DNA of 46,011 bases, taken from IMG/VR virus record IMGVR_UViG_3300020152_000007, positions 1 through 46,011 of that record; one strand, 5' to 3'. Under the pieces are notes generated by a model, which did no database searches, was not told the DNA's origin, and saw nothing but the letters and a program-made list of their open reading frames with translations. The position numbers were made by a program, and so were the translations under genes. This document shows, piece by piece, positions 14,239-46,011 of the stretch (the stretch's first letter is position 1; each line of letters starts with the position of its first letter). The stretch comes from a virus.

Positions 14239-14406
14239 ATGTTTCCATCAGTAGTAGAACACCCCACCTACGGGCGGCTGACGGTTAAGTCTGCTGGACA
14301 CTTTCCCGACACAGCCATCGTAACTGACGAATCCGGCAAGGAATTCGAAATCGAAATAAAACACCTGATAAAGGGGACCACAAATGACACCACTCCTCGC
14401 AAGTGA
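14239..14406 (+). CDS. Possible small ORF (55 aa)
   Basis: GGAG 7 nt upstream of the ATG. Hand-translated MFPSVVEHPTYGRLTVKSAGHFPDTAIVTDESGKEFEIEIKHLIKGTTNDTTPRK. Overlaps the next start. Confidence 0.35.
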   Translation: MFPSVVEHPTYGRLTVKSAGHFPDTAIVTDESGKEFEIEIKHLIKGTTNDTTPRK

Positions 14407-15670
14407 AATCATAGTAAGAGAAAATCGCCAACGTCAAACCTTCGACATTGACAAAATCACCGAGCTGTCAGAAAGCATTCAGCGCAACGGCTTGATGCAT
14501 CCGATTGTGGTGCGCCGTACTGACGAGGGCTTCGTGCTGGTCGCCGGGGAGCGTCGACTCAAAGCTATGCAAATGCTGATTGACCTCGACATCCCTGTCC
14601 GCTGCGGAGACACTCTCTACACCGGCGGAACCGTACCGAACCTCCAGCTTGGCGAACTCTCTCCCGAGCAAGCCGAAGAAGCCGAACTCGAAGAAAACAT
14701 CCGGCGAGTAGATTTAACGTGGCAGGAGAAAGCCGCCGCCACCGCCCGTCTTCACTTGCTGCGCAGCAAGCAAGCTGACGCCGCCGGCCAGTTCCGCCAA
14801 ACCCTTGCTATGACCGCCGCCGAGCTTATCGGCGACCTCCCCACCAGCAACGATGTCTCGATTGTTAAGGAAAACCTTATCATCGCGCAGCATCTCGATG
14901 ACCCTGACGTCGTCAAGGCGCCGACCCAGAAAGAGGCATTAAAGGTTATCGAGAAAAAAGCCAAGGCTCAGCATCGTGCTGAGCTTGCAAAAAAGTTCGA
15001 CCTGACCAAATCCCCGCACCGGCTTATCCACGCTAACAGCCTCGAGTACATGGCTGACTCCCTTGGCGATGAGGTTTTCGACTGCCTTCTCACCGACCCC
15101 CCGTACGGAGTTGACGCCTCGAATTTCGGCAGCAACTTCAGCACCCTCCACGAATACGAAGACGGATGGGAGTATTTCCTCGGCATTTCCCGCACCCTCT
15201 CTATTGAGGCCTTCCGGGTACTGAAACCCAACACCCACGCCTACGTCTTCTGCTCTTTCGAGGGCTTTTCCATCCTTGCGCGGGACTTCACTAAGGCCGG
15301 CTTTAAGGTGTGGCCACAACCGCTTATCTGGGCGAAGGGTAACGGCAACGCCCCTTGGGTTTCCCAGGGCCACAAGCGCACCTACGAGTGCATCATGTTT
15401 GCAAGCAAGGGCACTCGTGAAATGAACGTCGTCAAGGCAGACGTTCTTGTCCACTCCCCGGTGAGTGACCGCGAGCACGGCGCCGAAAAACCCGTACCCC
15501 TGCTCGTCGACCTGCTCCAGCGCAGCGTCGTTCCGGGCGATAAAATCCTCGACCCATTCGCGGGGTCAGGTAGTATTTTCCCAGCGGCCAGCGCAGTCTC
15601 CTGCGTCGCCGTGGGGATTGAACGCGAAGAAGCTTCCTTCAACCTTGCCCTTACAAAATTGGAGAATTAA
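14384..15670 (+). CDS. ParB-like N-terminal domain fused to a DNA (N6-adenine/N4-cytosine) methyltransferase
   Basis: ParB-N signature HPIVVRR...VLVAGERRLKAM; catalytic DPPY (LLTDPPYGV) followed by the AdoMet motif DPFAGSGS. Confidence 0.85.
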   Translation: MTPLLASEIIVRENRQRQTFDIDKITELSESIQRNGLMHPIVVRRTDEGFVLVAGERRLKAMQMLIDLDIPVRCGDTLYTGGTVPNLQLGELSPEQAEEAELEENIRRVDLTWQEKAAATARLHLLRSKQADAAGQFRQTLAMTAAELIGDLPTSNDVSIVKENLIIAQHLDDPDVVKAPTQKEALKVIEKKAKAQHRAELAKKFDLTKSPHRLIHANSLEYMADSLGDEVFDCLLTDPPYGVDASNFGSNFSTLHEYEDGWEYFLGISRTLSIEAFRVLKPNTHAYVFCSFEGFSILARDFTKAGFKVWPQPLIWAKGNGNAPWVSQGHKRTYECIMFASKGTREMNVVKADVLVHSPVSDREHGAEKPVPLLVDLLQRSVVPGDKILDPFAGSGSIFPAASAVSCVAVGIEREEASFNLALTKLEN

Positions 15671-16270: not shown

Positions 16271-16980
16271 GCGATAAAATAAACGTACTTGACCACGGCT
16301 TTGTCCGGTTGGTCAGTTGTATGCAGCCCGTCGACCCGTCGGCTGAGGAAAATGACATGTGGTTTGGGGACCTCGAAATCGTCCGCAACGCGAGGGTGAG
16401 TTATGATGCCGACTGGCGGGAGGGTGATGAAAAGAAGGACCAAAAGCTTATTGACTACCTCTACAAGAATCGACACACTTCCCCTTTCGAGGCGATGGTT
16501 TTTACGTTCGAGGTCAAGGCACCCCTCTTCGTTCTCCGTCAGTGGCATCGTCACCGCACCTGGAGCTACAACGAAGTTTCTGCGCGGTATACGGAACTTC
16601 CCGAGGAATTCTATCTCCCCGCACTTTCTAGCGTCACCACGCAGCACCAAAGCAACAAGCAAATGCGCACTGACGACCAGCACCCAACGGCGCATAAGTT
16701 CGTGGAAGAGTTGAAAGAACACAGCGAGCGGGCGTTTGAACTCTACCAATGGATGCTGGCCGATGGATACCCCCGCGAACTCTGCCGCACCGTCCTCCCC
16801 CTTAATACCTACTCTCGCATGTTCGCTACAGTTGACCTGCACAACCTCTTCCACTTCTGCCGGCTACGTTTGCACCCACACGCTCAATACGAAATTCGCG
16901 TGTACGCGCAGGCCATGCTTGACCTCGTCAATACCATCTGCCCTTATGCAGTTAAGGCATTCAAGGAGGGCTTAGAATGA
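16267..16980 (+). CDS. thyX: FAD-dependent thymidylate synthase ThyX
   Basis: ThyX signature RHRTWSYNEVSARY (RHRxxSxxxxSxR); typical N-terminus VLDHGFVRLV. Confidence 0.92.
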   Translation: MSDKINVLDHGFVRLVSCMQPVDPSAEENDMWFGDLEIVRNARVSYDADWREGDEKKDQKLIDYLYKNRHTSPFEAMVFTFEVKAPLFVLRQWHRHRTWSYNEVSARYTELPEEFYLPALSSVTTQHQSNKQMRTDDQHPTAHKFVEELKEHSERAFELYQWMLADGYPRELCRTVLPLNTYSRMFATVDLHNLFHFCRLRLHPHAQYEIRVYAQAMLDLVNTICPYAVKAFKEGLE

Positions 16981-19313
16981 TTGAACCGCAGGGGCGTCGG
17001 CCAGCTCGCATAATGATTATCGGGGACAGCCCAGGCCCCGATGACCAACTAAAAGGTCGGATGTGGCAGGGCACAGCGGGGGCAGAACTTCGGCGGATGC
17101 TGGCGCAGTCCGGCATCAACATGAACGACTGTTACTTGACGAATGTTTTTAAGCGGAGGACTTATGTCGAGGACCACTTTGACTTCAAGAACAAGCGCCC
17201 TATTGGCGGGGAGGTAGAAAATGCTCGTAAGCTTTTAGAGCGTGAAATTGAGGAATGCGACCCTACCCTCATCATACCTATGGGGGGGCTTCCCCTGTGG
17301 ATGTTCAACGGGGATAGTGCTATCTCTACTTGGCGCGGGAGTCTGCTCGAGTGGCGGGGCCGGAAGGTCCTCCCCACTTACCATCCCTCGCAAATCATGC
17401 GCATGTGGGAGTGGCGAGCCTTTGCCCTCACCGACCTGCGCCGGGCGCAAGACGAGTCGCTAACCCGCGACTTCAACTGGCGAATTTACAACTTCACCGT
17501 TAGACCGCAATTTGGTCAAGTAATAGAGCAACTAAACAACCTACTTGACACGGCGGAACAGGGTCCGCTTAAGCTCTCTGTCGACCTCGAAACCCGCTCG
17601 CAATTCATGGCCTGTATCGGCATCGCCTGGTCGCAGACTGACGCAATCTGCATTCCTTTAATGTGTGTTGAAAAACCGGAGGGGTATTGGGATGAACACG
17701 AAGAACTGGAAATTGTTACAATGGTGCGTAGCTTGCTTACTCATCGTAATGTCAGGGTGGTCGGTCAGAATTTTCTATACGATGCACAGTACTTTGCAAA
17801 AGAGCACGGCTACGTCCCCAACCTTACCGACGATACCATGTTTATGCAGCACGTACTCTTCCCCGGCCTTCCCAAAGGGCTTGATTTTCTCGCTTCCATG
17901 TACTGCCAGAAATATGTCTATTGGAAAGGCGAGGGAAAGGACTGGGACCCAAGCGTACCCGAAGAGAAACTGTGGATTTATAACTGCAAAGATGCCTGTT
18001 ACACGTATGAAATCAGTGATGTGTTGCCAGCGAGTTTAGCCCAAAACAACCTCACCGAACGGTACAACTTCCAAATGCGGATTTGGTGGAGAGCCCTCCG
18101 CATGATGCTTCGCGGCGTTCGCATAGACCTCAAATACCGCGACCAACTGGCAGGAGAATTACTCCATGAAATCATGCAGCGAGAGCAACGCATACTTCAG
18201 TTATGCGGCCATCCCCTCAATCCCCGGTCGCCCAAGCAGATGTCGACGTTCTTTTACGAGGACTGCAAACTCCCGGCCCAGCGTTCTCGCAAAGGCACTC
18301 GCGGAATCACGACGGACGATGAGGCGCTCACAAAAATCGCAACCCTCGAGCCCATCGTCGCTCCGCTCTGCAAAACCATCCGGGAAATGCGAAGCCTCGG
18401 CGTCTTCCTCTCCACTTTCGTACGGGCGTCTCTTAGCCACGACAAGCGCATCCGCTGCTCCTTCAATCCTGCGGGGACTGAATCGTTCCGGCTTTCTTCC
18501 TCGAAGGATGCTTTCGATTCAGGCACAAATCTCCAGAACATTCCGTCCGGTGATGAGGAGGAGGAACATGATGCAAATGCCTTGGTTCTTCCGAACATAC
18601 GCAAGCTCTTCGTCCCGGACCCAGACTACATTATCTTTGACGTCGACCTTTCAGGTGCTGACGCTCAGGTGGTCGCATGGGAAGCTAACGATGATAACCT
18701 TAAAGAAATCTTCCGTTCCGGCCAGAAAGTTCACGCTGTCAATGCGAAGGATATTTACGGAGCGGATGCCGGCCCGGATGGCAAGCGGGAGCCGTATTAC
18801 AAACGTGCTAAGATGGGGTGCCACCTTACGAATTACGGAGGTAAACCACGGACACTTTCAGTCGCCCTTGCTCTTACCATGCATGAGGCGGAGTTGTTCC
18901 AGCGCCGTTGGTTTGACATCCATCCTGGGATAAAGGACTGGCACAACCGCATCGAGGCGCAACTGCAGAGCACTCGTGAGGTGCGAAATAAATTCGGCAA
19001 CCGCCGCTTTTACTTCGACCGCGTGGAGGACCTGTTGCCCGAGGCCCTTGCTTGGGTCCCGCAATCTACCGTCGCCCTCGTCACCAACACCCAGTGGGAT
19101 AACATCGACACGCAAATTCCTGAAATCCAATTGCTCATTCAGGTCCACGACTCCCTCGTAGGCCAGTGCAAAATTCAGGATTGGCCACGCGTCAAGCCGC
19201 TTCTAAAAGAAGCGCTTAAGGTGCTGGTCCCCTACGATGACCCGCTTATTATCCCATCCGGGTTAAAGACCTCAACCCAAAGTTGGGGGCATTGCGTCGC
19301 TGAGAAGTGGTAA
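16977..19313 (+). CDS. Family A DNA polymerase with a 3'-5' exonuclease domain and an N-terminal family-4-UDG-like domain
   Basis: UDG-like IMIIGDSPGPDD...PTYHPSQ. Exo motifs DLETRS, NFLYDAQY, YNCKDACY. Pol motifs DVDLSGADAQVVA, KRAKMGCHLTNYGG, QVHDS. Confidence 0.9.
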   Translation: MIEPQGRRPARIMIIGDSPGPDDQLKGRMWQGTAGAELRRMLAQSGINMNDCYLTNVFKRRTYVEDHFDFKNKRPIGGEVENARKLLEREIEECDPTLIIPMGGLPLWMFNGDSAISTWRGSLLEWRGRKVLPTYHPSQIMRMWEWRAFALTDLRRAQDESLTRDFNWRIYNFTVRPQFGQVIEQLNNLLDTAEQGPLKLSVDLETRSQFMACIGIAWSQTDAICIPLMCVEKPEGYWDEHEELEIVTMVRSLLTHRNVRVVGQNFLYDAQYFAKEHGYVPNLTDDTMFMQHVLFPGLPKGLDFLASMYCQKYVYWKGEGKDWDPSVPEEKLWIYNCKDACYTYEISDVLPASLAQNNLTERYNFQMRIWWRALRMMLRGVRIDLKYRDQLAGELLHEIMQREQRILQLCGHPLNPRSPKQMSTFFYEDCKLPAQRSRKGTRGITTDDEALTKIATLEPIVAPLCKTIREMRSLGVFLSTFVRASLSHDKRIRCSFNPAGTESFRLSSSKDAFDSGTNLQNIPSGDEEEEHDANALVLPNIRKLFVPDPDYIIFDVDLSGADAQVVAWEANDDNLKEIFRSGQKVHAVNAKDIYGADAGPDGKREPYYKRAKMGCHLTNYGGKPRTLSVALALTMHEAELFQRRWFDIHPGIKDWHNRIEAQLQSTREVRNKFGNRRFYFDRVEDLLPEALAWVPQSTVALVTNTQWDNIDTQIPEIQLLIQVHDSLVGQCKIQDWPRVKPLLKEALKVLVPYDDPLIIPSGLKTSTQSWGHCVAEKW

Positions 19314-20899: not shown

Positions 20900-21161
20900 G
20901 AGTGCATTTCGGTTCGTGGTTAACTGTCAGAAGGTTTGCTGTCCGTACGAGTATCTCCGACAAACCCGCAGGGAGACCTCACAGAATCTTGCCGACTTTC
21001 TTGGCTTCTCTGTGAGGACTATCCGGTACTGGCGACTGCGCTACCGCGAGGGGGTGGTGAAGTGCGAACGCCTGCACGATTGCCCCCACCGCCCCGACGC
21101 GCAGCCTATTACTCTTCCTCGTCAGCGAAAGACTCGGAAACTCCCGCCGCAAGGTTCCTAG
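20883..21161 (+). CDS. Putative helix-turn-helix DNA-binding protein (92 aa, GTG start)
   Basis: SQNLADFLGFSVRTIRYWRLRYREG is HTH-like. AAGGGGG 5 nt upstream. Last gene of the plus-strand arm. Its 3' end overlaps the convergent giant ORF by 53 bp. Confidence 0.5.
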   Translation: MAYKPESAFRFVVNCQKVCCPYEYLRQTRRETSQNLADFLGFSVRTIRYWRLRYREGVVKCERLHDCPHRPDAQPITLPRQRKTRKLPPQGS

Positions 21162-24100
21162 CGTTTTTCGGCACAATACCGAGTTCCCGCTTGCGTTGGG
21201 CATCGAGGTGAGCTCGGTAGCTCTTGTGCAGTTGCCATTTCTGCAGCCGCATTTTCACATCCACCACCGAGTCGTTAAACTCCTCAATCCGCGACTCGAC
21301 ATCCGCCAGCGCTTCGCGGTCGTCGGCATCGCGGGCTTGACTCCACGCCGCCTGCAGGTTTTCCCGCTGTTTCGTCCAGTACATCACGGCTTCGGTTCGG
21401 GCCCAGTTTTCTTCTCGGGTCTTGTTCAGCCCGCTTGGAGTAAACCCAGCTATCTTCGCAGCCCCTTCCGCAACTGAGGGTTCGTAGATAGTTTCCCCAA
21501 TCCGGCCCTTGACTTCGCCGCTATCAATCCACTCCATTCCGGAGCTAACTGAACCGACGATGCCGGGGAACCGCTGGATGTTCTGTTCGATGCTCTTCCC
21601 TTGCCCGAGGTTAATAGCCATTTCGCCGAGGTTTTTAATCAAACTTCCCGTCACCCCTGTCGAGGTTAGAAGCGCCCGGCCGGCAAGTTCCTCTGGCGTT
21701 TCCGGATGCGAGTTCACGATGTCAGTTCCGGGCACCGGATTACCGATACCCAAGCTTCCACTAACATCCACTCCCATCACATCGCCGCCCATACCCTTAC
21801 TCCACCACCGGGGGTCATTCACCCAATGCCAGCCTTCGGGCGCCGGGATTTGTTTTATCCCCTCGCGTAGGTGTTGCCGGGCACTCTTCCCTGTCATCGA
21901 CATCAGCACGGCGTCGAGGATATCAAGAAGATTCCCGGAGAACGGAAGGGCCTCATAACCACCGAGCAGCAACAGCACCAGCAAAACTCGCTGTGTGTGA
22001 TTAATCGCGCCTTTGTCTCTCGCCGCTCCGAGCATTTCCACCCGACGCTGCTTACCCAGGTTATACCCCCCGGTCGAGTGCCAAGCAAGATGCACTGCGA
22101 ACGAGAAGAAGATGGTGAACAGCGGCAACAGACCGCCAAGGCTCCCGCCCCCTCGCATAAACTTCGGGCGATTGGCGAGTGTGTAGCTATTCTGCAGCAA
22201 GTCCGTTTGCTTCACCGCCTCCTGATACAAACTCTCCAGATTCACCCCGGCGTTGTTTTTCTTCGCCTCCGCCATTGCCGCATTCAGGGTTGCAAGGAAG
22301 GTGATTCGCCGGGCGTATTGCTCGGTCATCGTAAACGGCGCCATCCCTGCATCCGCTACCCACTGCAGACCTCGGTGCGTGTCGGCAGCCCAGCGGCTCC
22401 GGTTGGTCATCCGGCGAGTTACTCCAGCCGTTGCCGCTGCCCCTAAATGCGCTGCGTAGTTCTGCACTAAAAAACCCTCAGTAATCGCACGCTCGTACAT
22501 TTTCGCAATTTCCGGAGCAATCTTACCCTTCCCACTCACCAACACCCCGAGCTGCTTATTCGCCTTGAGCATCGCCGCATCACCTGCCAGCTCCCCGTAC
22601 TTCGAGGTCAAAGCTCCCCACGTACTAACCATGCCGGTGAGGTTCAGCAGCGCTGTCTTTATTCCGCCCCACAGGTACACGATTGCTACAAAGCTCCGGG
22701 CCGCATACATCTCGTTCGGGGGCGCCATCATGTAATCCTTGGTAATGGCCATGTACTTCTGAGCGCGCTTGATGTCCTGCAGCAGTCTGCGGCGGGGACC
22801 TGCGCGCATCGGAGTTTTGTCCACCTCTGCAAGCATTTGCCGCGCCGACTGTTCGGCCTTGTTGAAGGATGCAAGAGCTTCCGTCCGGGCAATCAGCGTC
22901 GAGTTGTGCCAGATAAAGTCAGCAAAGTTCCGCATCCGGTCTTTGCTTCCTCCCGAAATCTTCTCAATCGCCTTGCTGTATGGTGCCAGAAGCTTGTCCT
23001 CTTTCACAGGGTGCAACAGGTCATACAGCGTATCCCGTTGTTCCTGCGTCATATCCAGCGCTTCCGCCGCTACATCCACGTACTCGCGGGGGAGTGCAAG
23101 TAAAGCCCGTTTTTCGTCGGTCAAGTTAGCGATGGTCCGAACCCTCTGCCCAGGCTTCAGATTCTTTTCCAACAGCTCCCGGGCTTTCTCCCATTCCCTG
23201 TTGCTTTCGAACATCTGGCGATACACAACCTTGCGCTCCAGCCCGTTTTGCTCATACACCACTAGCCCCCACTCGCCATAATCTCCCCGAGGCAAAAATG
23301 GTGTCTCCCGAATCGAGGCGAAAGCCTTCTTCAACTCGTTCAGTTTGACAAGGAATTCCGACTGTTCCTGTACCGCCACACCCAGCCGACGGGCCAGAAC
23401 AATCTGCGCAGCTTCCGTATGCTGCAACAGCGCATTCTTACTCCGCAGATAAATTTCCGCTGCCTTTTTCCCCTGCCGCGTGTTGATGTCAATGCCAGCC
23501 TCTTTCAGCTTATCCACCGTTTCCGCTGTCATAACGTGCTTCCAGCCAGTTTCATCTCGTTGCAAAGCTGTCCAATGCACCCCTCCATCGGCTTCTTTTT
23601 CAAGCGCCCGATTCAACTTCGCATCGGCCTCCTTCCCCAGCATCTGCCAGTCTTTTGCAATGCCTTCACCCAGGGCCTGCAGCCGGGACTTCGCAGCATT
23701 GTATTGACTTGACGCGTTGGCCATCTGCTCAAGGAAATAGAACTCGGGGTGTAGCCACGAAATTTGCTGGAGTTGCAACAGTGAATACTGTGCTCGGGCG
23801 AGCCAATTCAGCGCCCTCCCCGTTAACCCCATGTTTTCGTACTTTTCCAGCGTCCGGGAAAGCGTGTCAATTTCCAGACCTGTCGCCGTGGTGAGGTCAA
23901 TGTCGGTTTGCATGTGAATGCGGGAGTCGTTGCTGTTAAAGGTAGCGTTCGCTGTTTTAACCTGCGCTGAGTCAAAGGCAACCCAACTCGTACCGCCCTC
24001 AACGTCATTCTCGTACTTAATCCCGTCATAGCCCAAGTGTTGCAGAATGCTCTTTAGGGTTGAGAAGTCTTCCCCATTCCGCTGAACAGCTTCAACCTGC

Positions 24101-27100
24101 ACCGGCGAAAGAACACCGAGACCTTGCAAATGCAGGGCCAAATCTACTGGAGTTCTCCAGATATGAATAGCCCCGACTTCGGAGAGTTCCAGCGGATTGC
24201 GGATGTTCAGATACACTGGAATAATGTTCATCCCAGTATCTTGCGGCCGCATAGTATCTCCGCCTACGGCATTCCGTTGTCCCCGGAACTCATCAAGTGC
24301 AATCCGGGCGTGAACTTCTTCCGGGGCTGACCTATACAGTCGGGCATGTGCGGCGAGTAAATCACCAAAGTGCGCACCAATATCTCCGCTATTGAAAGTG
24401 TGGATATCAGCCTTCGTTCCGTGGAACATTACCAGCGGACGACCGCTCGCCGTGACCACTTTACTTGCATTCGCCGGGTCATTCTCCCAGTCACCAAACC
24501 AAGCCTTGAAAAACGGGCTCCGCTCGCGATGCTTCACCCAAGCCGCAATAGCTTCTTTCTGTTGAGCCTCCTCTGCCCCTGCTGTCCGGGCGCCGTTCTG
24601 CGGGTCGGTGTCAAGCTGCTTCCGGACCCGCATTTTAAGCATCTCCACCATGCGCAGGTGAGCCGTGTTCAGGTCGTTACCGCGAATCAACTTATACAGC
24701 TCTTGCTTTTGCTTCACGCTAAAGCTACCGAAGGTCACAGCCTTACGGAGTTTCTGCGCCATGTAATTGTCGCGAGTCATAGGCAAAGTGTCCTTCGCCT
24801 TATCCAGAGCCTCCTTTACTTCCCCACTTACCGAGGAGGCGAATTCCTGCGGCGCAACCAGCTGGCTCAATTTCCCGAGCGATTGTATCCAGGCCTCAAA
24901 GCTGGTCCCGGCCGAAATCCGCCAGGTTTGCCCATTGTCGAGCTTTAGCCCCTTTTTCAGCGCAATGAAAAGCTTCCGCAACGAGTTCTGCACCTTTTCC
25001 AGCGTCGAACCCATAAGCTGCTGCCGAACCTTTTCCTCCGCTTCAACATGCTTAATTCCGCCGCTGAAGTACTCCCCCTTGCCGAGGGCAGTATCCCTAC
25101 CGAGTCCTTTCTCATGCGCATACCTGGCCATCTTTTCAGCCATGAACTCGTCGAAACTCAGATAGTCCTCAACCAGCGCATTCGTCAATTCATCAATTTG
25201 CTGCGAAATCGCCTGCCGCTCTTCCGGCACCCGTGTTACAGCCATCCGTGCCCGAAGCGTTGCGATGTCCTTATTCCCATTCGAGACAACGCGACGAACA
25301 AAGCTCTCCGCATTCATCCCCGAGTACCCACCCATTGCCTTGACCAGTTGCCGCTGCACTGCCATCGCCGGGGACATCCAGTGCTGTTGGAACCACTCCG
25401 CCGACTGCGTTTTCATTTGCGCCCGCAGTTGATTGTATTCCTTCGCCAGCTCAGCTTGCTCCGGATTCAACCCCGCGATAACCTCTTCGCTTATTCTTCC
25501 CTGCCGTTGTTCGAGGGTAAACGCTGATTGTACTTCCGGCGCCACGCCTTCAAGGAAGCGGTGCATCGTAAGTGCATGTCCAAACTCATGGTAGACATTA
25601 TAGAAAGCTTTCGCTTTGGTATGCTTGTTAAAACTGCCGGCATTGAGTGTACCTTCTTCAGTTGCTGAAAAGTTCCGTACGAAAGCTGGGATAATGAGGT
25701 ATTCCCCACTAGCCAGTTTCTGCGTCGTACCCACCGCTTGCCGGGTGCTCTGCGTTTCATTTGCCAGCACAATCGTTGCATCGGGCATGAAATCCTGACG
25801 GAGCTTTTCATACAGCTCGTGATAGCCTGCCAGTACATCGTCGCTGCGGTCCGCAGTAGGCTCTCCGATTACATACGTAGCCGGCTTTGTTTTGACTTTA
25901 CCGAGGGGCTGGCCGACCTGCTCCGCTGGTCCATAGGCAATACGACGCTGACTTCTCGGAACCGCATCGTTTGGGTTCGGCTCATAATTCTCCGCATTCA
26001 CCCGCACTTTCAGCGTGTTCCCAATTTGCGCGTCGGAGCTTAAAGCTTGGTCCACACCCACCGCACTGGTCCCATCGTTCGCCTCGCCGAAAGGCAAGAC
26101 TTTCTGCACCTGTGCCGCTTGGACTTGCACCGCCAGCTCTTCGTCTGCCAGCGGGTCAGGCAACTGGATAAGGGCTTCGCGGTCGGGTGGGAGGTCCGGT
26201 AAATCTTGGGACGTTGATTGATTTAATGACCGTCCCGTTAAATCACCTTCAGCGTTCAGCTCATTCAGAATATTTTGCAGAACCTCTGAGCCTTCCTTAT
26301 CGCCGGCAGTTGTGGCCGTGGCCAGTTCTGTCTCCAGCCCGTCGATGGGATTTTCCATCGGCAGCTCAGGTTCCGTTCGTTGGGGCAACAGAGCATCAAT
26401 TCCCTTCGCCGTCGCGCCACCAAGCACTGCTGCAAATGGAGTCTGTATCGCCGTGTCGACGACGCTCGCTCCCATCTCTTCGAGGAATTGTCCCAGCGGT
26501 TTGTCGGGCGTGTCGATGGCTTGCTTAATTCCTTCCTGCACAATGGTCGTAGGAATTTCCGTCATCAGCTCCCGGCCGACATACTTCATCAGCATTTTGC
26601 CGAAGGCTTCTTGCCCGAGGTCTTTAATCAACCCACCAATCGGGGAAAGCTCAAACGCCGTACCAACACCTGCCTGCAGGCCTGACGAGACCAGCGCACG
26701 TTCGTGACCGGAACCTTCATCCCGGGATTCCCCGTATGCCGGTAGCATTTCCAGCGGTGCCGCAATTGACAACGCCGCAGCTGGACTCTTCGTCGCCACA
26801 CCAGCAGCGATTGCCGGAGCCATTGTCGCTACGCTCGTTGCAACCCCCTGCGCATGCCGAAGCGGTTCACTCGGATTCGCCGGCAAAGCATCCTGCAGTT
26901 CGTTCTGCATCGCGCTTCGTTGCGCTGCCATCTGCGTATCATGCGACATAATCTCAGTGTTGCGCAGGCTTTCGGCCGCACCGTAGACTTGCGTGTATGC
27001 CTGTTGGAAGGGAATTCCAGAATCGACGAGTGCCCGAATCTGCAAGTTCTGCTCCCGGGTCAGCCCGGTGAAGCCTTCGGTATCAAGCGGTTTCGGCCGC

Positions 27101-27345
27101 GTTATCAAGTCTTCCGCATTCTGCCAGATATTCTTCCCGGCCCCCACTACAGCTGTTCCGAGGCTCTTCGCCCCTTCCACACTGAACAAATCAGTCTTTG
27201 CAGGCTCTGAAGCGCCAAAAAATTCCTCATCACTCAGCACCTTTGCGGGTGCCGGGGCTTTGAGGAATTCTTCGTCGGTTAGAGGTTGCTGCGAGGACTG
27301 GCCAAAAAACTCCGCGTCCGAAAGTGTCTTCACTGGGGTACCCAT
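21109..27345 (-). CDS. Giant polyvalent virion/ejection protein (2078 aa): zincin-like metallopeptidase motif, ART-like domain, C-terminal TM-rich region
   Basis: Uninterrupted 6.2-kb ORF at the end of the internal-virion-protein block. HEFGH at nt 25576..25590. FKAWFGDW...LVMFHGT...AHFGD...YENDVEGGTSWVAFDSAQVK (about nt 23940..24530) resembles the ART-PolyVal-type domains of phage polyvalent proteins. Several hydrophobic segments in the last ~400 aa. Confidence 0.85.
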   Translation of the reverse strand: MGTPVKTLSDAEFFGQSSQQPLTDEEFLKAPAPAKVLSDEEFFGASEPAKTDLFSVEGAKSLGTAVVGAGKNIWQNAEDLITRPKPLDTEGFTGLTREQNLQIRALVDSGIPFQQAYTQVYGAAESLRNTEIMSHDTQMAAQRSAMQNELQDALPANPSEPLRHAQGVATSVATMAPAIAAGVATKSPAAALSIAAPLEMLPAYGESRDEGSGHERALVSSGLQAGVGTAFELSPIGGLIKDLGQEAFGKMLMKYVGRELMTEIPTTIVQEGIKQAIDTPDKPLGQFLEEMGASVVDTAIQTPFAAVLGGATAKGIDALLPQRTEPELPMENPIDGLETELATATTAGDKEGSEVLQNILNELNAEGDLTGRSLNQSTSQDLPDLPPDREALIQLPDPLADEELAVQVQAAQVQKVLPFGEANDGTSAVGVDQALSSDAQIGNTLKVRVNAENYEPNPNDAVPRSQRRIAYGPAEQVGQPLGKVKTKPATYVIGEPTADRSDDVLAGYHELYEKLRQDFMPDATIVLANETQSTRQAVGTTQKLASGEYLIIPAFVRNFSATEEGTLNAGSFNKHTKAKAFYNVYHEFGHALTMHRFLEGVAPEVQSAFTLEQRQGRISEEVIAGLNPEQAELAKEYNQLRAQMKTQSAEWFQQHWMSPAMAVQRQLVKAMGGYSGMNAESFVRRVVSNGNKDIATLRARMAVTRVPEERQAISQQIDELTNALVEDYLSFDEFMAEKMARYAHEKGLGRDTALGKGEYFSGGIKHVEAEEKVRQQLMGSTLEKVQNSLRKLFIALKKGLKLDNGQTWRISAGTSFEAWIQSLGKLSQLVAPQEFASSVSGEVKEALDKAKDTLPMTRDNYMAQKLRKAVTFGSFSVKQKQELYKLIRGNDLNTAHLRMVEMLKMRVRKQLDTDPQNGARTAGAEEAQQKEAIAAWVKHRERSPFFKAWFGDWENDPANASKVVTASGRPLVMFHGTKADIHTFNSGDIGAHFGDLLAAHARLYRSAPEEVHARIALDEFRGQRNAVGGDTMRPQDTGMNIIPVYLNIRNPLELSEVGAIHIWRTPVDLALHLQGLGVLSPVQVEAVQRNGEDFSTLKSILQHLGYDGIKYENDVEGGTSWVAFDSAQVKTANATFNSNDSRIHMQTDIDLTTATGLEIDTLSRTLEKYENMGLTGRALNWLARAQYSLLQLQQISWLHPEFYFLEQMANASSQYNAAKSRLQALGEGIAKDWQMLGKEADAKLNRALEKEADGGVHWTALQRDETGWKHVMTAETVDKLKEAGIDINTRQGKKAAEIYLRSKNALLQHTEAAQIVLARRLGVAVQEQSEFLVKLNELKKAFASIRETPFLPRGDYGEWGLVVYEQNGLERKVVYRQMFESNREWEKARELLEKNLKPGQRVRTIANLTDEKRALLALPREYVDVAAEALDMTQEQRDTLYDLLHPVKEDKLLAPYSKAIEKISGGSKDRMRNFADFIWHNSTLIARTEALASFNKAEQSARQMLAEVDKTPMRAGPRRRLLQDIKRAQKYMAITKDYMMAPPNEMYAARSFVAIVYLWGGIKTALLNLTGMVSTWGALTSKYGELAGDAAMLKANKQLGVLVSGKGKIAPEIAKMYERAITEGFLVQNYAAHLGAAATAGVTRRMTNRSRWAADTHRGLQWVADAGMAPFTMTEQYARRITFLATLNAAMAEAKKNNAGVNLESLYQEAVKQTDLLQNSYTLANRPKFMRGGGSLGGLLPLFTIFFSFAVHLAWHSTGGYNLGKQRRVEMLGAARDKGAINHTQRVLLVLLLLGGYEALPFSGNLLDILDAVLMSMTGKSARQHLREGIKQIPAPEGWHWVNDPRWWSKGMGGDVMGVDVSGSLGIGNPVPGTDIVNSHPETPEELAGRALLTSTGVTGSLIKNLGEMAINLGQGKSIEQNIQRFPGIVGSVSSGMEWIDSGEVKGRIGETIYEPSVAEGAAKIAGFTPSGLNKTREENWARTEAVMYWTKQRENLQAAWSQARDADDREALADVESRIEEFNDSVVDVKMRLQKWQLHKSYRAHLDAQRKRELGIVPKNARNLAAGVSESFADEEE
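26208..26236. repeat. 29-bp imperfect palindrome, copy 5 (inside the giant ORF)
   Basis: GGGACGTTGATTGATTTAATGACCGTCCC; encodes ...TGRSLNQSTSQ... on the minus strand. Confidence 0.8.
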
Positions 27346-28493
27346 CCTTTACCTGTCCATTTAGCCTTTTGGCCGTTTTGATTTGTGTATACCTGTCCCT
27401 CAACCCGCTGACTTGGGTCTTGCGGAGCCAGCGGGATTCCCGTGCTTGCTGAAGCTCCGCCACCTGCTGCCAGCTTTTGCTTTGCAATTGCAAGCACAGT
27501 ACCAGCGCTCTTCCCGACGGTCATCTGTTGCGTCTGATTCACCCAGTCGTCGAAGTGCTTATACTTAGATTGCTCTTTAGGGTCAAGCGAACTCCACTGC
27601 GTAATTAGTGAATCCGCCATACCCTCGAAACCGCTCAAATCTGCCGAGCCCCTAGTGCTACTGGTCGTGATGTACTTATGCGCACCGGCCAAAATGTCAG
27701 CGTTGATTTCAGCTTGCGTCTTAACATCCTTATTAGCCATCGCATACAGTCGAGCCTCTTCATCCGGCAGGGCTGCAATCCAAGCAGGGGTAGCTTCGCG
27801 GCCTTCTTTACTTGCTGTAACATTTTCCATACTAGCTGCTGCACTCGCATTACTCGCATTCGCCCGAGCATTCGTTGCCTTAAGCTCAGCCTTCGGCAAA
27901 TCAAGAGTTGCCTGATACGAAGCATTAACTGCGTCGGGGTTAGCGGCTTTGTAGTCCTGAAAACGCTTAGCTTCATCAGCTTCAAACTGCGCTTTCAGCG
28001 CCTGCGCTTCCGCCGTTTTACCTTGCGTAACCAGGTTCTGATATTGCTGCCGCGCCGTACCCTTACGAATTTCCGCTTGCGATTCCCATTCCTTAAATTC
28101 CACCGTCCGCTGACCGGTTTGCTGGTCGGTCGAGCGGGTGAGTGACTCATCCCGGGCTACTGAAGCATTCGTCCGCTTTTCATCCATTTGCAGCGCACGT
28201 TCGTCAATTTCCCGCTTGCGGTCAAGCTCCGTCTTAAAGCCGTAGAAATCCATAGCGTCAAGACCGGTCCGCCCTACCGCCTGCATTGTGCTTTCCCCCT
28301 GCTCCCGACCCTGCAGCAAGTTCAGCCCCATACGCAGAATCGAGCTCTTCACGTTTGGGTCGTCAAGCACATGCTGCCAAGCCTTCTTCCGCCCCTCGAC
28401 TTCCTGCGGGTTTTGGGGAGGCGCAGCCATCATCGCCCCGTTCGGGTTGTCAAGGATGTCAGCCATCCCTGGCTGTACTGGAAACGTAGCCAT
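27330..28493 (-). CDS. Internal virion protein candidate, coiled-coil-rich (387 aa)
   Basis: GGGAGG 5 nt upstream; TAATG coupling with the upstream gene; long charged helical region. Confidence 0.65.
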   Translation of the reverse strand: MATFPVQPGMADILDNPNGAMMAAPPQNPQEVEGRKKAWQHVLDDPNVKSSILRMGLNLLQGREQGESTMQAVGRTGLDAMDFYGFKTELDRKREIDERALQMDEKRTNASVARDESLTRSTDQQTGQRTVEFKEWESQAEIRKGTARQQYQNLVTQGKTAEAQALKAQFEADEAKRFQDYKAANPDAVNASYQATLDLPKAELKATNARANASNASAAASMENVTASKEGREATPAWIAALPDEEARLYAMANKDVKTQAEINADILAGAHKYITTSSTRGSADLSGFEGMADSLITQWSSLDPKEQSKYKHFDDWVNQTQQMTVGKSAGTVLAIAKQKLAAGGGASASTGIPLAPQDPSQRVEGQVYTNQNGQKAKWTGKGWVPQ

Positions 28494-28984
28494 TATTGCC
28501 TCCCTTCGAGTAGCGCTGCCAGCGAAGGCAGGGTTGTAACGTTGGGCGTCTGGAACTGGGCAGCAGTGAAGCCTCGCCAGTTATTACCGCCGGCTGAGGG
28601 TGCGCCAGGATAGGTCTGCTTCTCCCGCTTCCCAAGCATACTTCCTACGCCCTCCAACATCTTCTTGTACTTCTCAGCCTTTTCCTTCTCGGGGTCAGCA
28701 GCGGGTTGTTCAGGCTGTGTTGCCGAAGCCGTTTGTGGAGGTACCCAACCACCGCCGCCAGGAGCTGAAGCTTCCCCGTCCAGAATCGCAGTGAAGTCCG
28801 GCCCTTGCGGCCCCTGCGGAGCGAACTGCGGAAGGCTCTGCTTTTGCATCTGCAGCGTTTCCTGTTGTGCTTGCTGAAAAGCTGCCGCCGGGTCGAGGGG
28901 GCTCATCGCCAGATTATCTAACAGCTGCATCCGAAGTGGCGAGTTCGGGTCTTGCAGTGCTGCCGTTAACATTGAAAAATCCAT
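28493..28984 (-). CDS. Low-complexity Q/P/A-rich virion protein candidate (163 aa)
   Basis: AGGAG 6 nt upstream; translationally coupled within the block. Confidence 0.6.
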   Translation of the reverse strand: MDFSMLTAALQDPNSPLRMQLLDNLAMSPLDPAAAFQQAQQETLQMQKQSLPQFAPQGPQGPDFTAILDGEASAPGGGGWVPPQTASATQPEQPAADPEKEKAEKYKKMLEGVGSMLGKREKQTYPGAPSAGGNNWRGFTAAQFQTPNVTTLPSLAALLEGRQ

Positions 28985-28993
28985 ACTGTTCTC

Positions 28994-29950
28994 CTAGAAT
29001 AATCCGCCAAGTACTGCGCCGCCGATTGCACCGATGCCAGTACCCATTGGACCAAACATGCTACCAAGCTGTGCGCCGGACATCGCGCCACCAAGTGCGC
29101 CTGCAGCACCACCGCTTTGAGTTCCGCTTCCCGAGGTGCTGGTTGTGCTTCCAGAACTCCCCGCCCCGTAGACGATATTCGCCCAGTTTTGCAACGGAAT
29201 CCAGCCGCTGTTCAGGTCCCAGTTCCGACTGTCGCCCAGATAGTTTTCTTGAGCTTGCGCCATGTTCTGATTCTGCTGCCCAACAGCGCCGTAGGCAGTT
29301 CCGGGCATTGTCGTCGCCTGCATAGTTTGCGGGGTAAGCCCGTAAATCCGACTGAATGTATCCAGGCCTTTGCCGTAGGCATCTGATGTAACACGGCTTG
29401 CAGTATCCCCGATTGCCTGCGCATAACGCCCCGCCGCGATACCCTCAGCCACACCCTGCCGAGTCGAATTCCCCTGCCCACCATTGGCGATAGAGTTATT
29501 CCGAATTGAGCTCATCACGCCGCCGGCGTCAGTATAGCTTTCGGTAATCGGACGGACGCTGGCTGAAATCGCCGACTGCAGGTACGGATTGCTGTTGACA
29601 TCGAGCACATCGCTCAGGCCAAACTTCGTCGCTTCGCCTAGTTGCGGCAAGTACTGACTCGCCATCGTATTAGCGGCAGTCCGCGTCAGATTCTGCCCCG
29701 TTAACTGGTCCTGATTCAGGGGGACAACCTGCGCACCTGGGTACGGAGATTCCCCGATTTTCTTTGCAGTTTGCTTATACAGTTGTTCCGCTGTATTCTG
29801 AATCTGCGAGCGGTTTGCGGCCTCTTCCGGGGAGTAATTCTGCACGGTTTGTGTGCTGCTGCCTCCCCCGCCACTACCTTTAAAGAGTCGACGATTCAGC
29901 TTGTTCAGCGGCGGCGTGAAAAATTCTGGTTCATGTAGAAAAATTCTCAT
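28994..29950 (-). CDS. Internal virion protein candidate with a Gly-rich hydrophobic C-terminus (318 aa)
   Basis: ORF track; C-terminal GGAAGALGGAMSGAQLGSMFGPMGTGIGAIGGAVLGGLF. Confidence 0.65.
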   Translation of the reverse strand: MRIFLHEPEFFTPPLNKLNRRLFKGSGGGGSSTQTVQNYSPEEAANRSQIQNTAEQLYKQTAKKIGESPYPGAQVVPLNQDQLTGQNLTRTAANTMASQYLPQLGEATKFGLSDVLDVNSNPYLQSAISASVRPITESYTDAGGVMSSIRNNSIANGGQGNSTRQGVAEGIAAGRYAQAIGDTASRVTSDAYGKGLDTFSRIYGLTPQTMQATTMPGTAYGAVGQQNQNMAQAQENYLGDSRNWDLNSGWIPLQNWANIVYGAGSSGSTTSTSGSGTQSGGAAGALGGAMSGAQLGSMFGPMGTGIGAIGGAVLGGLF

Positions 29951-29951
29951 G

Positions 29952-30332
29952 TTATTTCCCCAAAATTTGCGACATCAGGTTTTGACCGAGTGCGTCAAAA
30001 TTCTGTTGAGGTTTAGGGGACGGGCCAGCAACTGGTGGGGCGCTTTGAGCGGGAGAAGCGCTTTGCCCCTGACCAAACTGCGGCCCGTCGAGAATATCAG
30101 CTAAGCCAAGCCCACCCTGCGGACCCTGCCAGCCGGGCTGAGGCATTTGGCTCATTTCTGGCGCCGGGCGGGAGTACACCGGCAACGCCTTTGATGCGAG
30201 GTCCGGTTGAGGAGCCTGCATCGGTTGCTGCATCTGGCCCATCGAATTTTGACCCCAAATGGGCGCCAGTGGGTTATTCCCCAACCCCGAGAGGTATCCA
30301 TTTGGACCTAAAACTGGTTGATGTATTGGCAT
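29952..30332 (-). CDS. Q/P/G-rich low-complexity protein (126 aa)
   Basis: AAAGGA 7 nt upstream; 1-nt gap to the next gene. Confidence 0.55.
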   Translation of the reverse strand: MPIHQPVLGPNGYLSGLGNNPLAPIWGQNSMGQMQQPMQAPQPDLASKALPVYSRPAPEMSQMPQPGWQGPQGGLGLADILDGPQFGQGQSASPAQSAPPVAGPSPKPQQNFDALGQNLMSQILGK

Positions 30333-30343
30333 TGTAATTCCTT

Positions 30344-30820
30344 TCAGTGAAGGTTAAAGAGGCATTTGCGCATATACACAAAGGGCGCATCCTCAAAACC
30401 CATCCGTTCCATTAGCGCTTTTGCCCGGTGCGTGGTGAAGGTCTCCAGTTCGTCGCACCCGTTTGCCCTTGCCCAGTCCTCTACGGCTGGCATAAATTTC
30501 AAGGTAAGCAGCGGATTTTTCCCGGCAAAGCCGACCAGACGCAGTGTCTTTGCCTGTGGATATTGCACAAATTCGGTTAAAGCTACAATATGTATCTCCC
30601 CTTCAGTATGGATAACTAGGGCTGTCATGAGCCCTTCGGAGATAAGCTTAAATACATCTTGCGGCTGCAGCTTTCCGTCAGACACAGTAACCCACTTGAA
30701 CACGAAGGGCTCGAGGTCTGGCCAAGCCGAGGCAATCGTATCGCCAGCGACTTGGAAGCATTCCGCACCCTCGTACAGTGTCTTAACCGAGCTTGTTCCA
30801 GCTTGCGTTGTAGTAGACAT
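30344..30820 (-). CDS. Putative GNAT-like acetyltransferase-fold protein (158 aa)
   Basis: Internal ATG of track ORF 30344..30952. C-terminal ...RLVGFAGKNPLL...EDWARANGCDELETF...AKALMERMGFED resembles GNAT motif A/B. Weak call. Confidence 0.35.
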   Translation of the reverse strand: MSTTTQAGTSSVKTLYEGAECFQVAGDTIASAWPDLEPFVFKWVTVSDGKLQPQDVFKLISEGLMTALVIHTEGEIHIVALTEFVQYPQAKTLRLVGFAGKNPLLTLKFMPAVEDWARANGCDELETFTTHRAKALMERMGFEDAPFVYMRKCLFNLH

Positions 30821-31025
30821 AAACACCCTTTCCGGAACCGGGGTTCCAATCAGTTCCATCCGCCCCGCGCACCATCCCCTCACGAGGTCTGGCCGGGGCG
30901 GTGTGGAGAAATTCAACGTGCCGGGAAATGCCCAGCTGCATAGCTGCCGCAATCAGATTTAGCTCTTCTTGCAGATACAGCTTAATATCTTTCGGGTCTT
31001 CCGGCGGCGTATTAGGCTGGTACAT
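30783..31025 (-). CDS. Small conserved-looking tail-module protein (80 aa)
   Basis: Internal ATG of track ORF 30783..31076; TAATG coupling with the upstream 526-aa gene. Confidence 0.55.
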   Translation of the reverse strand: MYQPNTPPEDPKDIKLYLQEELNLIAAAMQLGISRHVEFLHTAPARPREGMVRGADGTDWNPGSGKGVYVYYNASWNKLG

Positions 31026-32613: not shown

Positions 32614-33030
32614 TCAAGTGCAAATCGTAGGAGCGTGCAGAATAGGCCGCTCAGGTTCTGTTGCAGAGGGCAAGCCGGCCAGCCGAACCGCCGTGTACAC
32701 GTAAAGCGCCCGGGCCTTTGGCATTCCGTCCTCAATGCAGAGCTGCTCCAGCAGCAAGTCCGCAAACTTCCTCCACTCTTTCGAGCTTAAGTACCCCATC
32801 CGCATAAGCTGGTACAGGGCGTCATGGATAAGACTCCCTCGCATGAAATCGGGAGTGTCGATAGTCGGACCGCTTGGACCATCCCAAGCGTAATCCTGCC
32901 GGATGTGCAGAAACCCTGAAGTTTCGAATGTGATAAACCGAGTTATGATAAGCTTTTCGGGAGCCTTATCTAAAAACAGCCCATAGTCTTCCACGAGCTG
33001 GTATTTATACCCCGCCCGGTACTTAATCAC
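32614..33030 (-). CDS. DUF1353-like protein (138 aa, GTG start)
   Basis: YAWDGPSGP...GSLIHDALY pattern; GTGA coupling with the lysin gene. Confidence 0.6.
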   Translation of the reverse strand: MIKYRAGYKYQLVEDYGLFLDKAPEKLIITRFITFETSGFLHIRQDYAWDGPSGPTIDTPDFMRGSLIHDALYQLMRMGYLSSKEWRKFADLLLEQLCIEDGMPKARALYVYTAVRLAGLPSATEPERPILHAPTICT

Positions 33031-33527
33031 TTTTCGTTCTTAGAGCTTGCGCCTAAGCCCTCACCGTACTTCGGCAAGTTGTACTGCAGGGGGTAGTGGG
33101 TGTCCAGCGGCCAACGGTACCCCAACACGCGGGAGGGGTCAAATGGCGCGATGGTCACGGCATTGCTCTGATTGCCGCCGAGTACCATCAGCCGATTGCG
33201 GGTATCCACACCCACAACTAGCCCCACGTGCCCAGCACCGCCGCGCTCGAAAATTACCACGCAACCGTAGGCTGGCAGTGCGAGCTTCTTCCCCCAATCA
33301 AGCCAAGCCCGTGCGCGGTAGTACGCTTTCGGGGGGTTAAGCTCGGCCATTCGAATCACTGCCCCAAGGCCTACCCCGCACCAAGGGGTCTCATCGTCTC
33401 GCCACCAAGCACCCATAAGCACCAACGCCTTTTCAATGAAAGGCGCAGTTTTCTTTCCGGGAATCTCCTTCTGCCCGAGATAGTTAAGTGCGATTTCAAC
33501 CCATAATGGCTTAACAATGGTTCTCAT
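33027..33527 (-). CDS. Cell-wall hydrolase/endolysin, NlpC/P60-CHAP-like (TIGR02594-type)
   Basis: Cys motif ETPWCGVGLG; His motif GGAGHVGLVVG; VLGGNQSNAV. Confidence 0.7.
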   Translation of the reverse strand: MRTIVKPLWVEIALNYLGQKEIPGKKTAPFIEKALVLMGAWWRDDETPWCGVGLGAVIRMAELNPPKAYYRARAWLDWGKKLALPAYGCVVIFERGGAGHVGLVVGVDTRNRLMVLGGNQSNAVTIAPFDPSRVLGYRWPLDTHYPLQYNLPKYGEGLGASSKNEK

Positions 33528-45840: not shown

Positions 45841-45927
45841 ATGCGTGCAGCAAAGTTCTATTGGGGCTGGATTGTGGTAGTTGTAGGTATCCAGCTGGTC
45901 ACTCTAATAATTCAGGTTAAGGTGTAA
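45841..45927 (+). CDS. Possible 28-aa hydrophobic peptide
   Basis: AGGAGG 4 nt upstream. MRAAKFYWGWIVVVVGIQLVTLIIQVKV. Flanked by two similar hairpins. Its 3' part lies in the terminal repeat (it continues as 1..43). Confidence 0.4.
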   Translation: MRAAKFYWGWIVVVVGIQLVTLIIQVKV

Positions 45928-46011
45928 ATTTGGGCCGGGGAGGAAACTTCCCGGCTTTTCTCCGGCGGTTGGCGGTGGGAGTGTGGCGCGTCGCGCAGGG
46001 GCAAAAAAAAA
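45885..46011. repeat. Terminal direct repeat, copy 2 (identical to 1..127)
   Basis: Base-for-base identity with 1..127. Confidence 0.95.
45934..45961 (+). terminator. Rho-independent terminator (same sequence as 50..77)
   Basis: GCCGGGGA-ggaaac-TTCCCGGC followed by TTTTCT; follows the 28-aa ORF. Confidence 0.6.

Follow-up and report, generated by a model that had tools for sequence, protein, structure and literature searches.

A giant, cysteine-free polyvalent protein of a metagenomic podovirus combines a predicted ADP-ribosyltransferase with a zincin-like domain and a PLxRFG module

The window analysed here is the IMG/VR virus record IMGVR_UViG_3300020152_000007 over its whole length of 46,011 nucleotides (nt), and its subject is the giant gene at 21109..27345 on the minus strand. 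We consider it reasonably probable that the product of this gene is a polyvalent carrier, packaged in the capsid and ejected, which delivers an ADP-ribosyltransferase (ART) effector and contains a zincin-like domain acting in processing. The giant protein fits recognisably into the known polyvalent class and does not represent a novel type of system. Public models exist for two of its three main parts, and it already carries a name in the database. The analysis adds a few concrete points of modest weight, namely a zincin-like family outside Pfam, an organisation with a fixed chassis and a single slot, and a cysteine-free ejection block. A link of the PLxRFG module to large internal virion proteins is added tentatively. 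The features referred to below are the following (aa, amino acids; ORF, open reading frame; KD, Kyte-Doolittle value).

21109..27345, minus strand: complete ORF; 2078 aa if started at ATG 27345, 2074 aa if started at GTG 27333 (NCBI)
27330..30332, minus strand: four upstream genes (126, 318, 163 and 387 aa), cysteine-free, of low complexity, putative ejection block with the giant gene
27217..27324, minus strand: triple acidic repeat LSDAEFF / LTDEEFL / LSDEEFF, aa 8-43, kept in the closest relatives
26386..26868, minus strand: N-terminal Ala/Gly-rich region, moderately hydrophobic, aa ~160-320
24511..26058, minus strand: family-specific conserved region, aa 430-945, zincin-like core followed by a helical extension
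25342-25857, minus strand: zincin-like core, aa ~497-668, inside the conserved region aa 430-945
25576..25590, minus strand: HEFGH, aa 586-590, predicted metal-binding/catalytic helix, from conservation among 103 relatives
23947..24447, minus strand: ART-PolyVal domain (PF18760), aa 967-1133, in the variable cargo slot of the family
21112..23913, minus strand: conserved C-terminal module of ~930 aa, aa 1145-2078, with the NF032893 match inside
23284..23301, minus strand: PFLPRG (aa 1349-1354), the PLxRFG signature as it appears here, with a small beta domain predicted just behind it
22636..22692, minus strand: hydrophobic helix 1, aa 1552-1570, KD 1.43
22084..22140, minus strand: hydrophobic helix 2, aa 1736-1754, KD 1.86, the sole one clearly in the transmembrane range
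21931..21987, minus strand: hydrophobic helix 3, aa 1787-1805, KD 1.46

An earlier reading made from the letters alone (the sequence-only reading) had described a single ORF of 2078 aa covering about 14% of the genome and had placed it with the polyvalent proteins. Both statements held: the ORF has 2078 codons and takes up 13.6% of the window, and it contains a bona fide ART-PolyVal domain according to Pfam. NCBI holds an identical protein under the name "PLxRFG domain-containing protein [Methylocaldum sp.]" on a 46,025-bp contig. Two starts are candidates, ATG 27345 and, four codons later, the GTG 27333 used by NCBI. The latter overlaps the TGA of the upstream gene (GTGA; region 27331-27345), which suggests translational coupling with that gene. 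Searching the whole protein against PDB sequences yielded nothing, and a PHROGs search matched only families of unknown function.

One argument for a carrier comes from the family architecture. Four profiles derived from an alignment of the seven closest sequences were run over all collected proteins. The zincin-like domain and the C-terminal module were common to 95 full-length relatives, the majority of which matched the profile of the N-terminal hydrophobic region as well. The gap between the zincin-like domain and the C-terminal module ranged from about zero (the envelopes overlap in one member) to 928 residues, and its content varied. A full ART was found there in 24 of the 95; other relatives carry a GHKL-type ATPase (HATPase_c_3) with a second HExxH behind it, or an ART-PolyVal variant above the Pfam threshold with WRG instead of FHGT, and in further ones the gap is filled by sequence of no known family. 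This variable content between shared modules marks the ART as exchangeable cargo and the rest as a conserved chassis. The large regions between the motifs, previously suspected to hold new effectors, thus turned out to be mostly conserved chassis, with the effector slot at the position of the ART. The N-terminal hydrophobic region also occurs in polyvalent proteins lacking the PLxRFG module, for example in gp039c of Caulobacter phage Jess A (E=1e-25). The gp039c gene is flanked by those of a 758-aa "lysis protein" and a tail protein; its product (LPD22 plus ART-PolyVal) has only the N-terminal hydrophobic region and the ART in common with the giant protein. In front of the hydrophobic region, at the extreme N-terminus, stands the acidic repeat, a pattern which the genome translated in six frames shows nowhere else and which may be a candidate packaging or ejection signal.

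The strings which had been read as ART-like were found at aa 947-1130 (nt 23956-24507), and Pfam confirmed the assignment. ART-PolyVal (PF18760) matched aa 967-1133 with 44.3 bits against a gathering score of 31.2 (E=3.8e-11), covering profile positions 3-134 of 140. Conserved among the ART-bearing relatives are H975, G990-x-H992-F993-G994, N1050-P1051, D1107-G1108, Y1111, N1113 and E1116. H975, part of the FHGT motif, was kept in 24 and D1107 in all of the 25 relatives with an ART domain. The ARTs of polyvalent proteins possess an H-Y-D active site and belong to the Tox-ART-HYD2 clade, with His in strand 1, Tyr in strand 2 and Asp in strand 5 (Iyer et al., 2017, PMC5512222). Judged by its sequence, the slot of this phage holds a predicted ADP-ribosyltransferase of the H-Y-D clade, which is presumably catalytically active. 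In many relatives (P0104, P0113, P0088, P0121 and others) the strand-1 FHGT is replaced by VWRG, with His changed to Arg, and the VWRG variant of P0104 still scores above the Pfam threshold for ART-PolyVal. The replacement may represent a switch of the active-site type inside one family.

The second recognisable part of the giant protein is the HExGH domain. Exactly one HExxH is present, HEFGH at aa 586-590, at the very position (nt 25576-25590) and in the context FYNVYHEFGHALTMHRF from which a zincin had been proposed. As a protein of this composition is expected to contain 0.054 HExxH by chance, the motif alone is weak evidence and independent support was needed. A search of 1.84 billion representative proteins with a profile built from aa 430-945 matched 101 clusters, nearly all of them proteins of 1800-2700 aa. 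In 103 aligned relatives H586, E587 and G589 were found without exception (103/103 each), and H590 in 102. An AlphaFold (AF2) model of aa 430-945 reached a predicted local distance difference test (pLDDT) of 69.7 and a predicted template modelling score (pTM) of 0.60, with pLDDT values of ~80-90 around the HEFGH core. In this model a helix (model residues 73-90) is followed by a three-stranded sheet (96-99, 111-114, 120-123), the long helix with HEFGH (145-168) and more helices, which is the order helix, three strands, helix described for the zincin core by Iyer et al. (PMC5512222). An HExxH helix after a helix and a three-stranded sheet, with both His and the Glu conserved, is the general hallmark of zincins and was found here in a model of moderate confidence.

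Pfam detected no metallopeptidase or LPD family in the whole protein even at E<=1, so that neither the MPTase-PolyVal nor the LPD match for which the sequence-only reading had suggested looking was obtained. When 38 family members were compared with Pfam at a lenient E<=10, recurring sub-threshold matches were obtained to Peptidase_M43 (8/38), DUF4344 'putative metallopeptidase' (6/38, best E=1.3e-4) and Reprolysin_5 (4/38). Matches seen in one member each were heterogeneous, with M10, M66, M48, M32 and a Met-zincin among them; MPTase-PolyVal (PF18818) was absent from the 25 families listed of the 28 matched. A profile search of the PDB gave myroilysin with E=0.06 (81 aligned residues through the HExxH helix), and also matrix metalloproteinases (MMPs), M32 and M60; a separate comparison of the aa 430-945 profile with PDB sequences yielded nothing relevant. 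The recurring weak matches all lead to zincins, and none of them is significant by itself. The zincin proposal is upheld as far as the conserved HExGH and the zincin-like topology are concerned, but it lacks a significant Pfam metallopeptidase match, MPTase-PolyVal included. The HExGH domain is a strongly constrained domain, zincin-like by sequence and model, and a family of its own outside Pfam. Two further candidate assignments were rejected. Homology of the core to the HExxH subdomain of the N4 CTD-C1 was not upheld, as only the motif helix aligns (E=0.087), nor was E620 as a family-wide third zinc ligand.

The present data are compatible with more than one substrate of the zincin-like domain. 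It might act on the host envelope or on host proteins instead of processing the giant protein itself, for instance by cutting peptidoglycan cross-links for the conduit in the periplasm or by degrading a host defence protein. The authors of the phi24B study propose peptidoglycan degradation by the metallopeptidase domain of a packaged polyvalent protein, and the weak matches listed above are secreted or extracellular zincins (M43, the astacin-like myroilysin, MMPs, reprolysin). We nevertheless hold a host-directed role to be doubtful, though worth keeping in view. A separate CHAP/lysozyme-like protein is already encoded in the operon (33027..33527), no peptidoglycan-peptidase family (M15, M23) appeared among the matches, and the fixed place adjoining the cargo slot fits processing equally well.

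The largest recognisable feature of the giant protein, overlooked in the sequence-only reading, is the C-terminal PLxRFG module of ~700-930 aa. The NCBIfam model NF032893 PLxRFG ('tail-700') matched aa 1350-2058 (nt 21172-23298) with 164.8 bits, the cut-off being 100, over profile positions 3-674 of 681. In close relatives the signature is invariant as P-F-L-P-x-G. The literature assigns no function to the PLxRFG domain. Hydrophobic helices near the C-terminus and a membrane-insertion region had been reported before. Using a Kyte-Doolittle scan (19-residue window, >1.4), three such helices were indeed found at nt 21931-22692; they lie inside the PLxRFG module, but ~270-530 residues away from the C-terminus and not at its extreme end. 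Across the family they are conserved and moderately hydrophobic (mean KD 1.0-1.2), which tempers the membrane-insertion claim; insertion by these helices is plausible from the sequence. In the metagenomic relative P0015 (3252 aa) an intein-like insertion of ~390 aa (CVDAETEC...VTGN|S) splits the conserved YNKG / RPxWARG motif of the module. Inteins usually occupy functionally critical sites. The insertion is probably also the reason for the six cysteines of P0015.

In a C-terminal AlphaFold model based on nine sequences helices prevail, and a small beta domain comes directly behind PFLPRG. Foldseek gave no PDB match below E=0.38 and did not recover T7 gp16. Against BFVD, a collection of predicted viral structures, 38 matches were obtained at E<=1e-3. 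The best of them (E 1e-27 to 1e-15) were C-termini of giant phage proteins annotated as large polyvalent protein, methylase or SNF2/helicase. Whole proteins of 1400-1500 aa were matched as well, namely the 'internal virion protein D' of Roseobacter phage CRP-4 (5e-8), a protein of Vibrio phage ICP2 (2e-8) and gp42 of Celeribacter phage P12053L (1e-7), with TM scores of 0.24-0.34 from a low-confidence model. In the genome of P12053L, an SIO1-type podovirus, the gp42 gene belongs to the internal-protein block, and a GNAT acetyltransferase gene stands two genes upstream of it. Comparing the C-terminal family with the P12053L protein family by hhalign, a collinear alignment over 749 columns was obtained (E=0.0057, probability 6.5%). 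An NCBIfam scan found no PLxRFG domain in Bcep22 gp75, N4 gp50 or P12053L_42. The modelled fold is suggestive of a relationship between the PLxRFG module and the largest ejection proteins of podoviruses.

Classical-type PLxRFG modules were found in 66 phage records, among them F116-like, Lastavirus, PBC5 and PEp14 types, where the proteins are variously annotated as DarB-like, structural protein or PLxRFG. Only 12 records of the plasmid collection contained them, none mobilizable; described there are ten replicons of 55-87 kb, one of 425 kb and two chromosome-sized Neisseria records. This phage-heavy, non-mobilizable distribution fits a virion-linked rather than a conjugation-linked role. The C-terminal module of the window itself gave weak, partial matches in the phage collection, the best full-length-query match being Microcystis phage Mel-JY34 with 23% identity, and no match in the plasmid collection.

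Gene position and composition connect the giant protein to ejection. As previously stated, the gene closes the block of internal virion proteins: it is the last of the structural operon on the minus strand and directly follows four small genes with products of ejection-protein type, a place which fits an injected virion protein. The 318-aa product matches a PHROG 'DNA ejection protein' and ends with a glycine zipper. The giant protein and the four preceding proteins together contain no cysteine in 3072 residues, at an average of 1.1% cysteine in the other counted ORFs of the genome (binomial P ~1e-15 for the cysteine-free block). Cysteine is also absent from 90 of 95 relatives of the giant protein, from the giant proteins of P12053L, Jess A and Mel-JY34, and from the experimentally ejected virion RNA polymerase (vRNAP) of N4 with its 3500 aa. 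Lack of cysteine may be a general signature of ejected podovirus proteins.

These findings bear on whether the giant protein enters the virion at all. Operon position by itself is no proof of packaging, and the gene could merely sit at the end of the late operon and encode a cytoplasmic factor (anti-defence, toxin or superinfection exclusion) which stays unpackaged. We judge this quite improbable, since the absence of cysteine is common to the four upstream ejection-type proteins and N4 vRNAP, the start codon overlaps the upstream stop in a manner consistent with translational coupling, PLxRFG modules are confined to phages and non-mobilizable replicons, and packaged precedents exist for giant terminal genes. 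Moreover, an effector made only late would act too late against restriction of the incoming DNA.

The remainder of the genome points to a podovirus. Positions 1-127 and 45885-46011 of the window are identical, and from this exact 127-bp terminal overlap the window can be taken as a complete phage genome of ~45.9 kb, assembled as a circle or else terminally redundant. No near-identical DNA was found for the window in the phage collection, and no tRNA genes were found in it. The minus-strand half is a podovirus-type structural operon with large terminase, portal, major capsid protein and tail proteins, followed by the CHAP/lysozyme-like protein, a 526-aa virion protein and a weakly acetyltransferase-like ORF. 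A homologue of the giant protein with 74% identity is encoded on a metagenomic contig of 45 kb that is syntenic throughout; among the structural genes of this contig, matches to SU10-type adaptor and Gp10-type nozzle families were found. Mel-JY34 shows the same convergent layout with a terminal gene of 1894 aa. That the giant protein is long, mostly helical and equipped with Gly-rich and hydrophobic stretches recalls a tape measure or tail fibre of a long-tailed phage, and one neighbouring protein weakly matches a PHROG 'tail assembly chaperone'. Such an identity was rejected on gene context and appears to us next to impossible: tail-tube, sheath or baseplate genes were not found, the adaptor and nozzle of the relative are of podovirus type, no tape-measure or fibre family was matched in Pfam, PHROGs or NCBIfam, and enzyme domains would be unexpected in such proteins.

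Several side observations were made in the neighbourhood. Translated in six frames, the genome shows the motif [ADT][DIA]ILD[GN] in exactly three places (ADILDG, TAILDG and ADILDN; minus-strand positions 30084-30101, 28775-28792 and 28446-28463), once in each of three of the small cysteine-free proteins; it may be a shared packaging or interaction motif. In three podovirus groups unrelated to each other, the gene of the giant internal protein is preceded, at a distance of a few genes, by one for an acetyl- or acyltransferase-like protein, namely at 30344-30952 on the minus strand of the window (weak match to a PHROG acetyltransferase, E=3e-4), as gp44 of P12053L and as gp69 of Bcep22. The plus-strand half encodes replication proteins, among them a PD-(D/E)XK nuclease, an AAA_24 ATPase, ThyX and a DUF3987 protein, and two fusions. 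In the 778-aa product of 16977-19313 (plus strand) an N-terminal domain of the uracil-DNA-glycosylase superfamily is followed by a 3'-5' exonuclease and a family A DNA polymerase, a fusion which was also found in the syntenic metagenomic relative. At 14384-15670 (plus strand) a ParB N-terminal domain and an N6/N4 DNA methylase are joined in one ORF, and the corresponding place in Mel-JY34 is taken by a DNA modification methylase.

Gene position, the absence of cysteine and the likeness of the C-terminal model to large internal virion proteins in BFVD would also agree with a purely structural role. The giant protein would then be an ejectosome or internal-core protein like T7 gp16 or internal virion protein D (IVP-D), building the inner-membrane end of the DNA conduit and delivering no enzymatic effector, with HExGH and ART structural or vestigial. 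That the chassis is far better conserved than the cargo, with a full ART in just 24 of 95 members, points the same way. We rate it as unlikely. The ART scores above the Pfam threshold and keeps the polar residues of its family including H975 and D1107, other enzyme domains such as the GHKL ATPase fill the slot in relatives, as is typical of exchangeable effectors, and the conservation of H, E, G and H in HExGH argues for chemistry over scaffolding.

For the preferred reading of an ejected carrier, the following course of events can be proposed, in which we infer packaging, translocation, membrane engagement, catalytic activity and self-cleavage, each of them, for the giant protein. It would be made late and packed in the head together with the four small cysteine-free ejection proteins, and would leave through the tail before the DNA or along with it. 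The chassis would consist of the acidic repeat and the Ala/Gly-rich hydrophobic region at the N-terminus, the HExGH domain and the helical PLxRFG module of ~930 aa, and its hydrophobic parts would engage the inner membrane like the largest ejection protein of other podoviruses. The ART domain would reach the cytoplasm and modify host targets with NAD+, thereby favouring infection. The zincin-like domain would most likely cut the polyprotein or a partner ejection protein and so free or activate the cargo.

We are aware of the fact that a number of results weigh against this reading. For the giant protein and its close relatives alike, packaging, ejection and enzyme activity are predictions, and self-processing by the zincin is a hypothesis of Iyer et al. 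(PMC5512222). The zincin assignment itself combines motif conservation, predicted topology and sub-threshold matches. Comparing the model of the zincin region with the PDB by Foldseek, nothing significant was found; the best matches were ERAP2 (E=0.29), the putative zinc metallopeptidase 4l7a and LTA4 hydrolase. The candidate for the third metal ligand, E620, is invariant in the seven closest sequences but kept in just 47 of the 103 relatives. In the ART domain, the strand-2 Tyr of the H-Y-D triad is not assignable from sequence without a structural alignment. The hydrophobic helices exceed the transmembrane-type threshold in only 17-33% of the relatives, and the C-terminal model is of low confidence (pLDDT 62, pTM 0.46). 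Finally, a hidden Markov model search of the C-terminal module against N4 gp50, Jess A gp039c/gp040c and P12053L_42 was not significant, and hhalign of the C-terminal nine-sequence alignment with these giant proteins gave E=0.32.

A more far-reaching version of the carrier reading is possible, although we lean against it at present. The N-terminal hydrophobic region, HExGH and PLxRFG might together form a dedicated delivery chassis derived from an ejection protein of the IVP-D/gp16 class, with one hot-swappable slot (ART, WRG-variant ART, GHKL ATPase plus second zincin, or others) and with the HExGH protease freeing the cargo in the cytoplasm after translocation. If this were true, the PLxRFG module would be the part which engages membrane and conduit and makes giant effectors injectable. 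To our knowledge, polyvalent proteins are a predicted widespread route for injecting anti-host enzymes of phages, and almost none of them has been studied. The same chassis in ~95 lineages with differing cargo amounts to a natural experiment, in which the division into carrier and effector is testable. In uncultured podoviruses, a total absence of cysteine could serve to single out proteins that are ejected. For the giant protein itself the practical use is modest, as this podovirus is known only from a metagenome-derived assembly assigned to the methanotroph Methylocaldum sp.

Among the closest known systems are the ART-PolyVal polyvalent proteins (PMC5512222). They too are giant multidomain proteins encoded among late or packaging genes of portal-terminase phages, combine an H-Y-D ART related to Tox-ART-HYD2 with an HExxH domain and are predicted to be delivered with the DNA. 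Unlike in those, the HExGH of the giant protein is not recognised by the MPTase-PolyVal model, no LPD was detected, and a fixed chassis with a single variable slot takes the place of free domain shuffling. The T4 Alt protein, cited earlier as a precedent for an injected effector, is an injected virion ADP-ribosyltransferase and holds as a functional analogy. It differs in clade: Alt belongs to the R-S-E clade (Alt/VIP2), ART-PolyVal to the H-Y-D clade (PMC5512222), so that the likeness is functional only. Alt is moreover a ~75-kDa protein of a myovirus and not a family-level homologue of ART-PolyVal.

With respect to the C-terminal part, proteins matching NF032893 from F116-like Pseudomonas, Klebsiella Lastavirus and PBC5/PEp14 phages ('DarB-like antirestriction') share the same module of ~700 aa, likewise in very large proteins, of podophages with 57-66 kb. 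They differ in their methylase/helicase or other N-terminal cargo, in their length of 3000-4500 aa and in a C-terminal identity to the giant protein of only ~20-24%. Like the T7 gp16/IVP-D class, the giant protein is the last and largest of the internal or ejection protein block, and its predicted C-terminal fold weakly matches the CRP-4, ICP2 and P12053L proteins (E 1e-7 to 1e-8). Unlike this class, it shows no significant sequence or profile similarity and has no lytic transglycosylase domain. A paper on the podovirus ΦGT1 does not mention ART, zincin or polyvalent internal proteins.

Coliphage N4 gp50 (vRNAP) is ejected as beads on a string through a channel of ~35 Å, with its hydrophobic N-terminal domain serving as the inner-membrane anchor; an HExxH subdomain in it is followed by a large helical C-terminal domain without structural homologue (PMC13434306). 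The giant protein resembles it as a giant podovirus protein, ejected in the case of N4, with no cysteine, a hydrophobic N-terminal region, HExxH and a helical C-terminal domain, and in being encoded beside smaller ejection proteins. Dissimilar are the cargo of N4 gp50, an RNA polymerase, and the zincin and C-terminal parts, which are without detectable sequence homology. Presence in virions is documented for three giant proteins of the polyvalent type. The 2811-aa polyvalent protein gp47 of phi24B is abundant in virions and a proposed ejection protein (bioRxiv 10.64898/2026.04.10.717836), and the giant DarB-like proteins JC1 gp69 and Bcep22 gp75 are virion proteins encoded by the last structural gene (PMC9144972), all three according to mass spectrometry. 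Their domains differ from those of the giant protein, phi24B gp47 having LPD1/5/38 and MuF-C and the Bcep22-type proteins methylase/helicase, with no PLxRFG match in Bcep22 gp75. Common to Bcep22 gp75, JC1 gp69 and the giant protein is the place of the gene, last in the structural module and near an acyltransferase gene.

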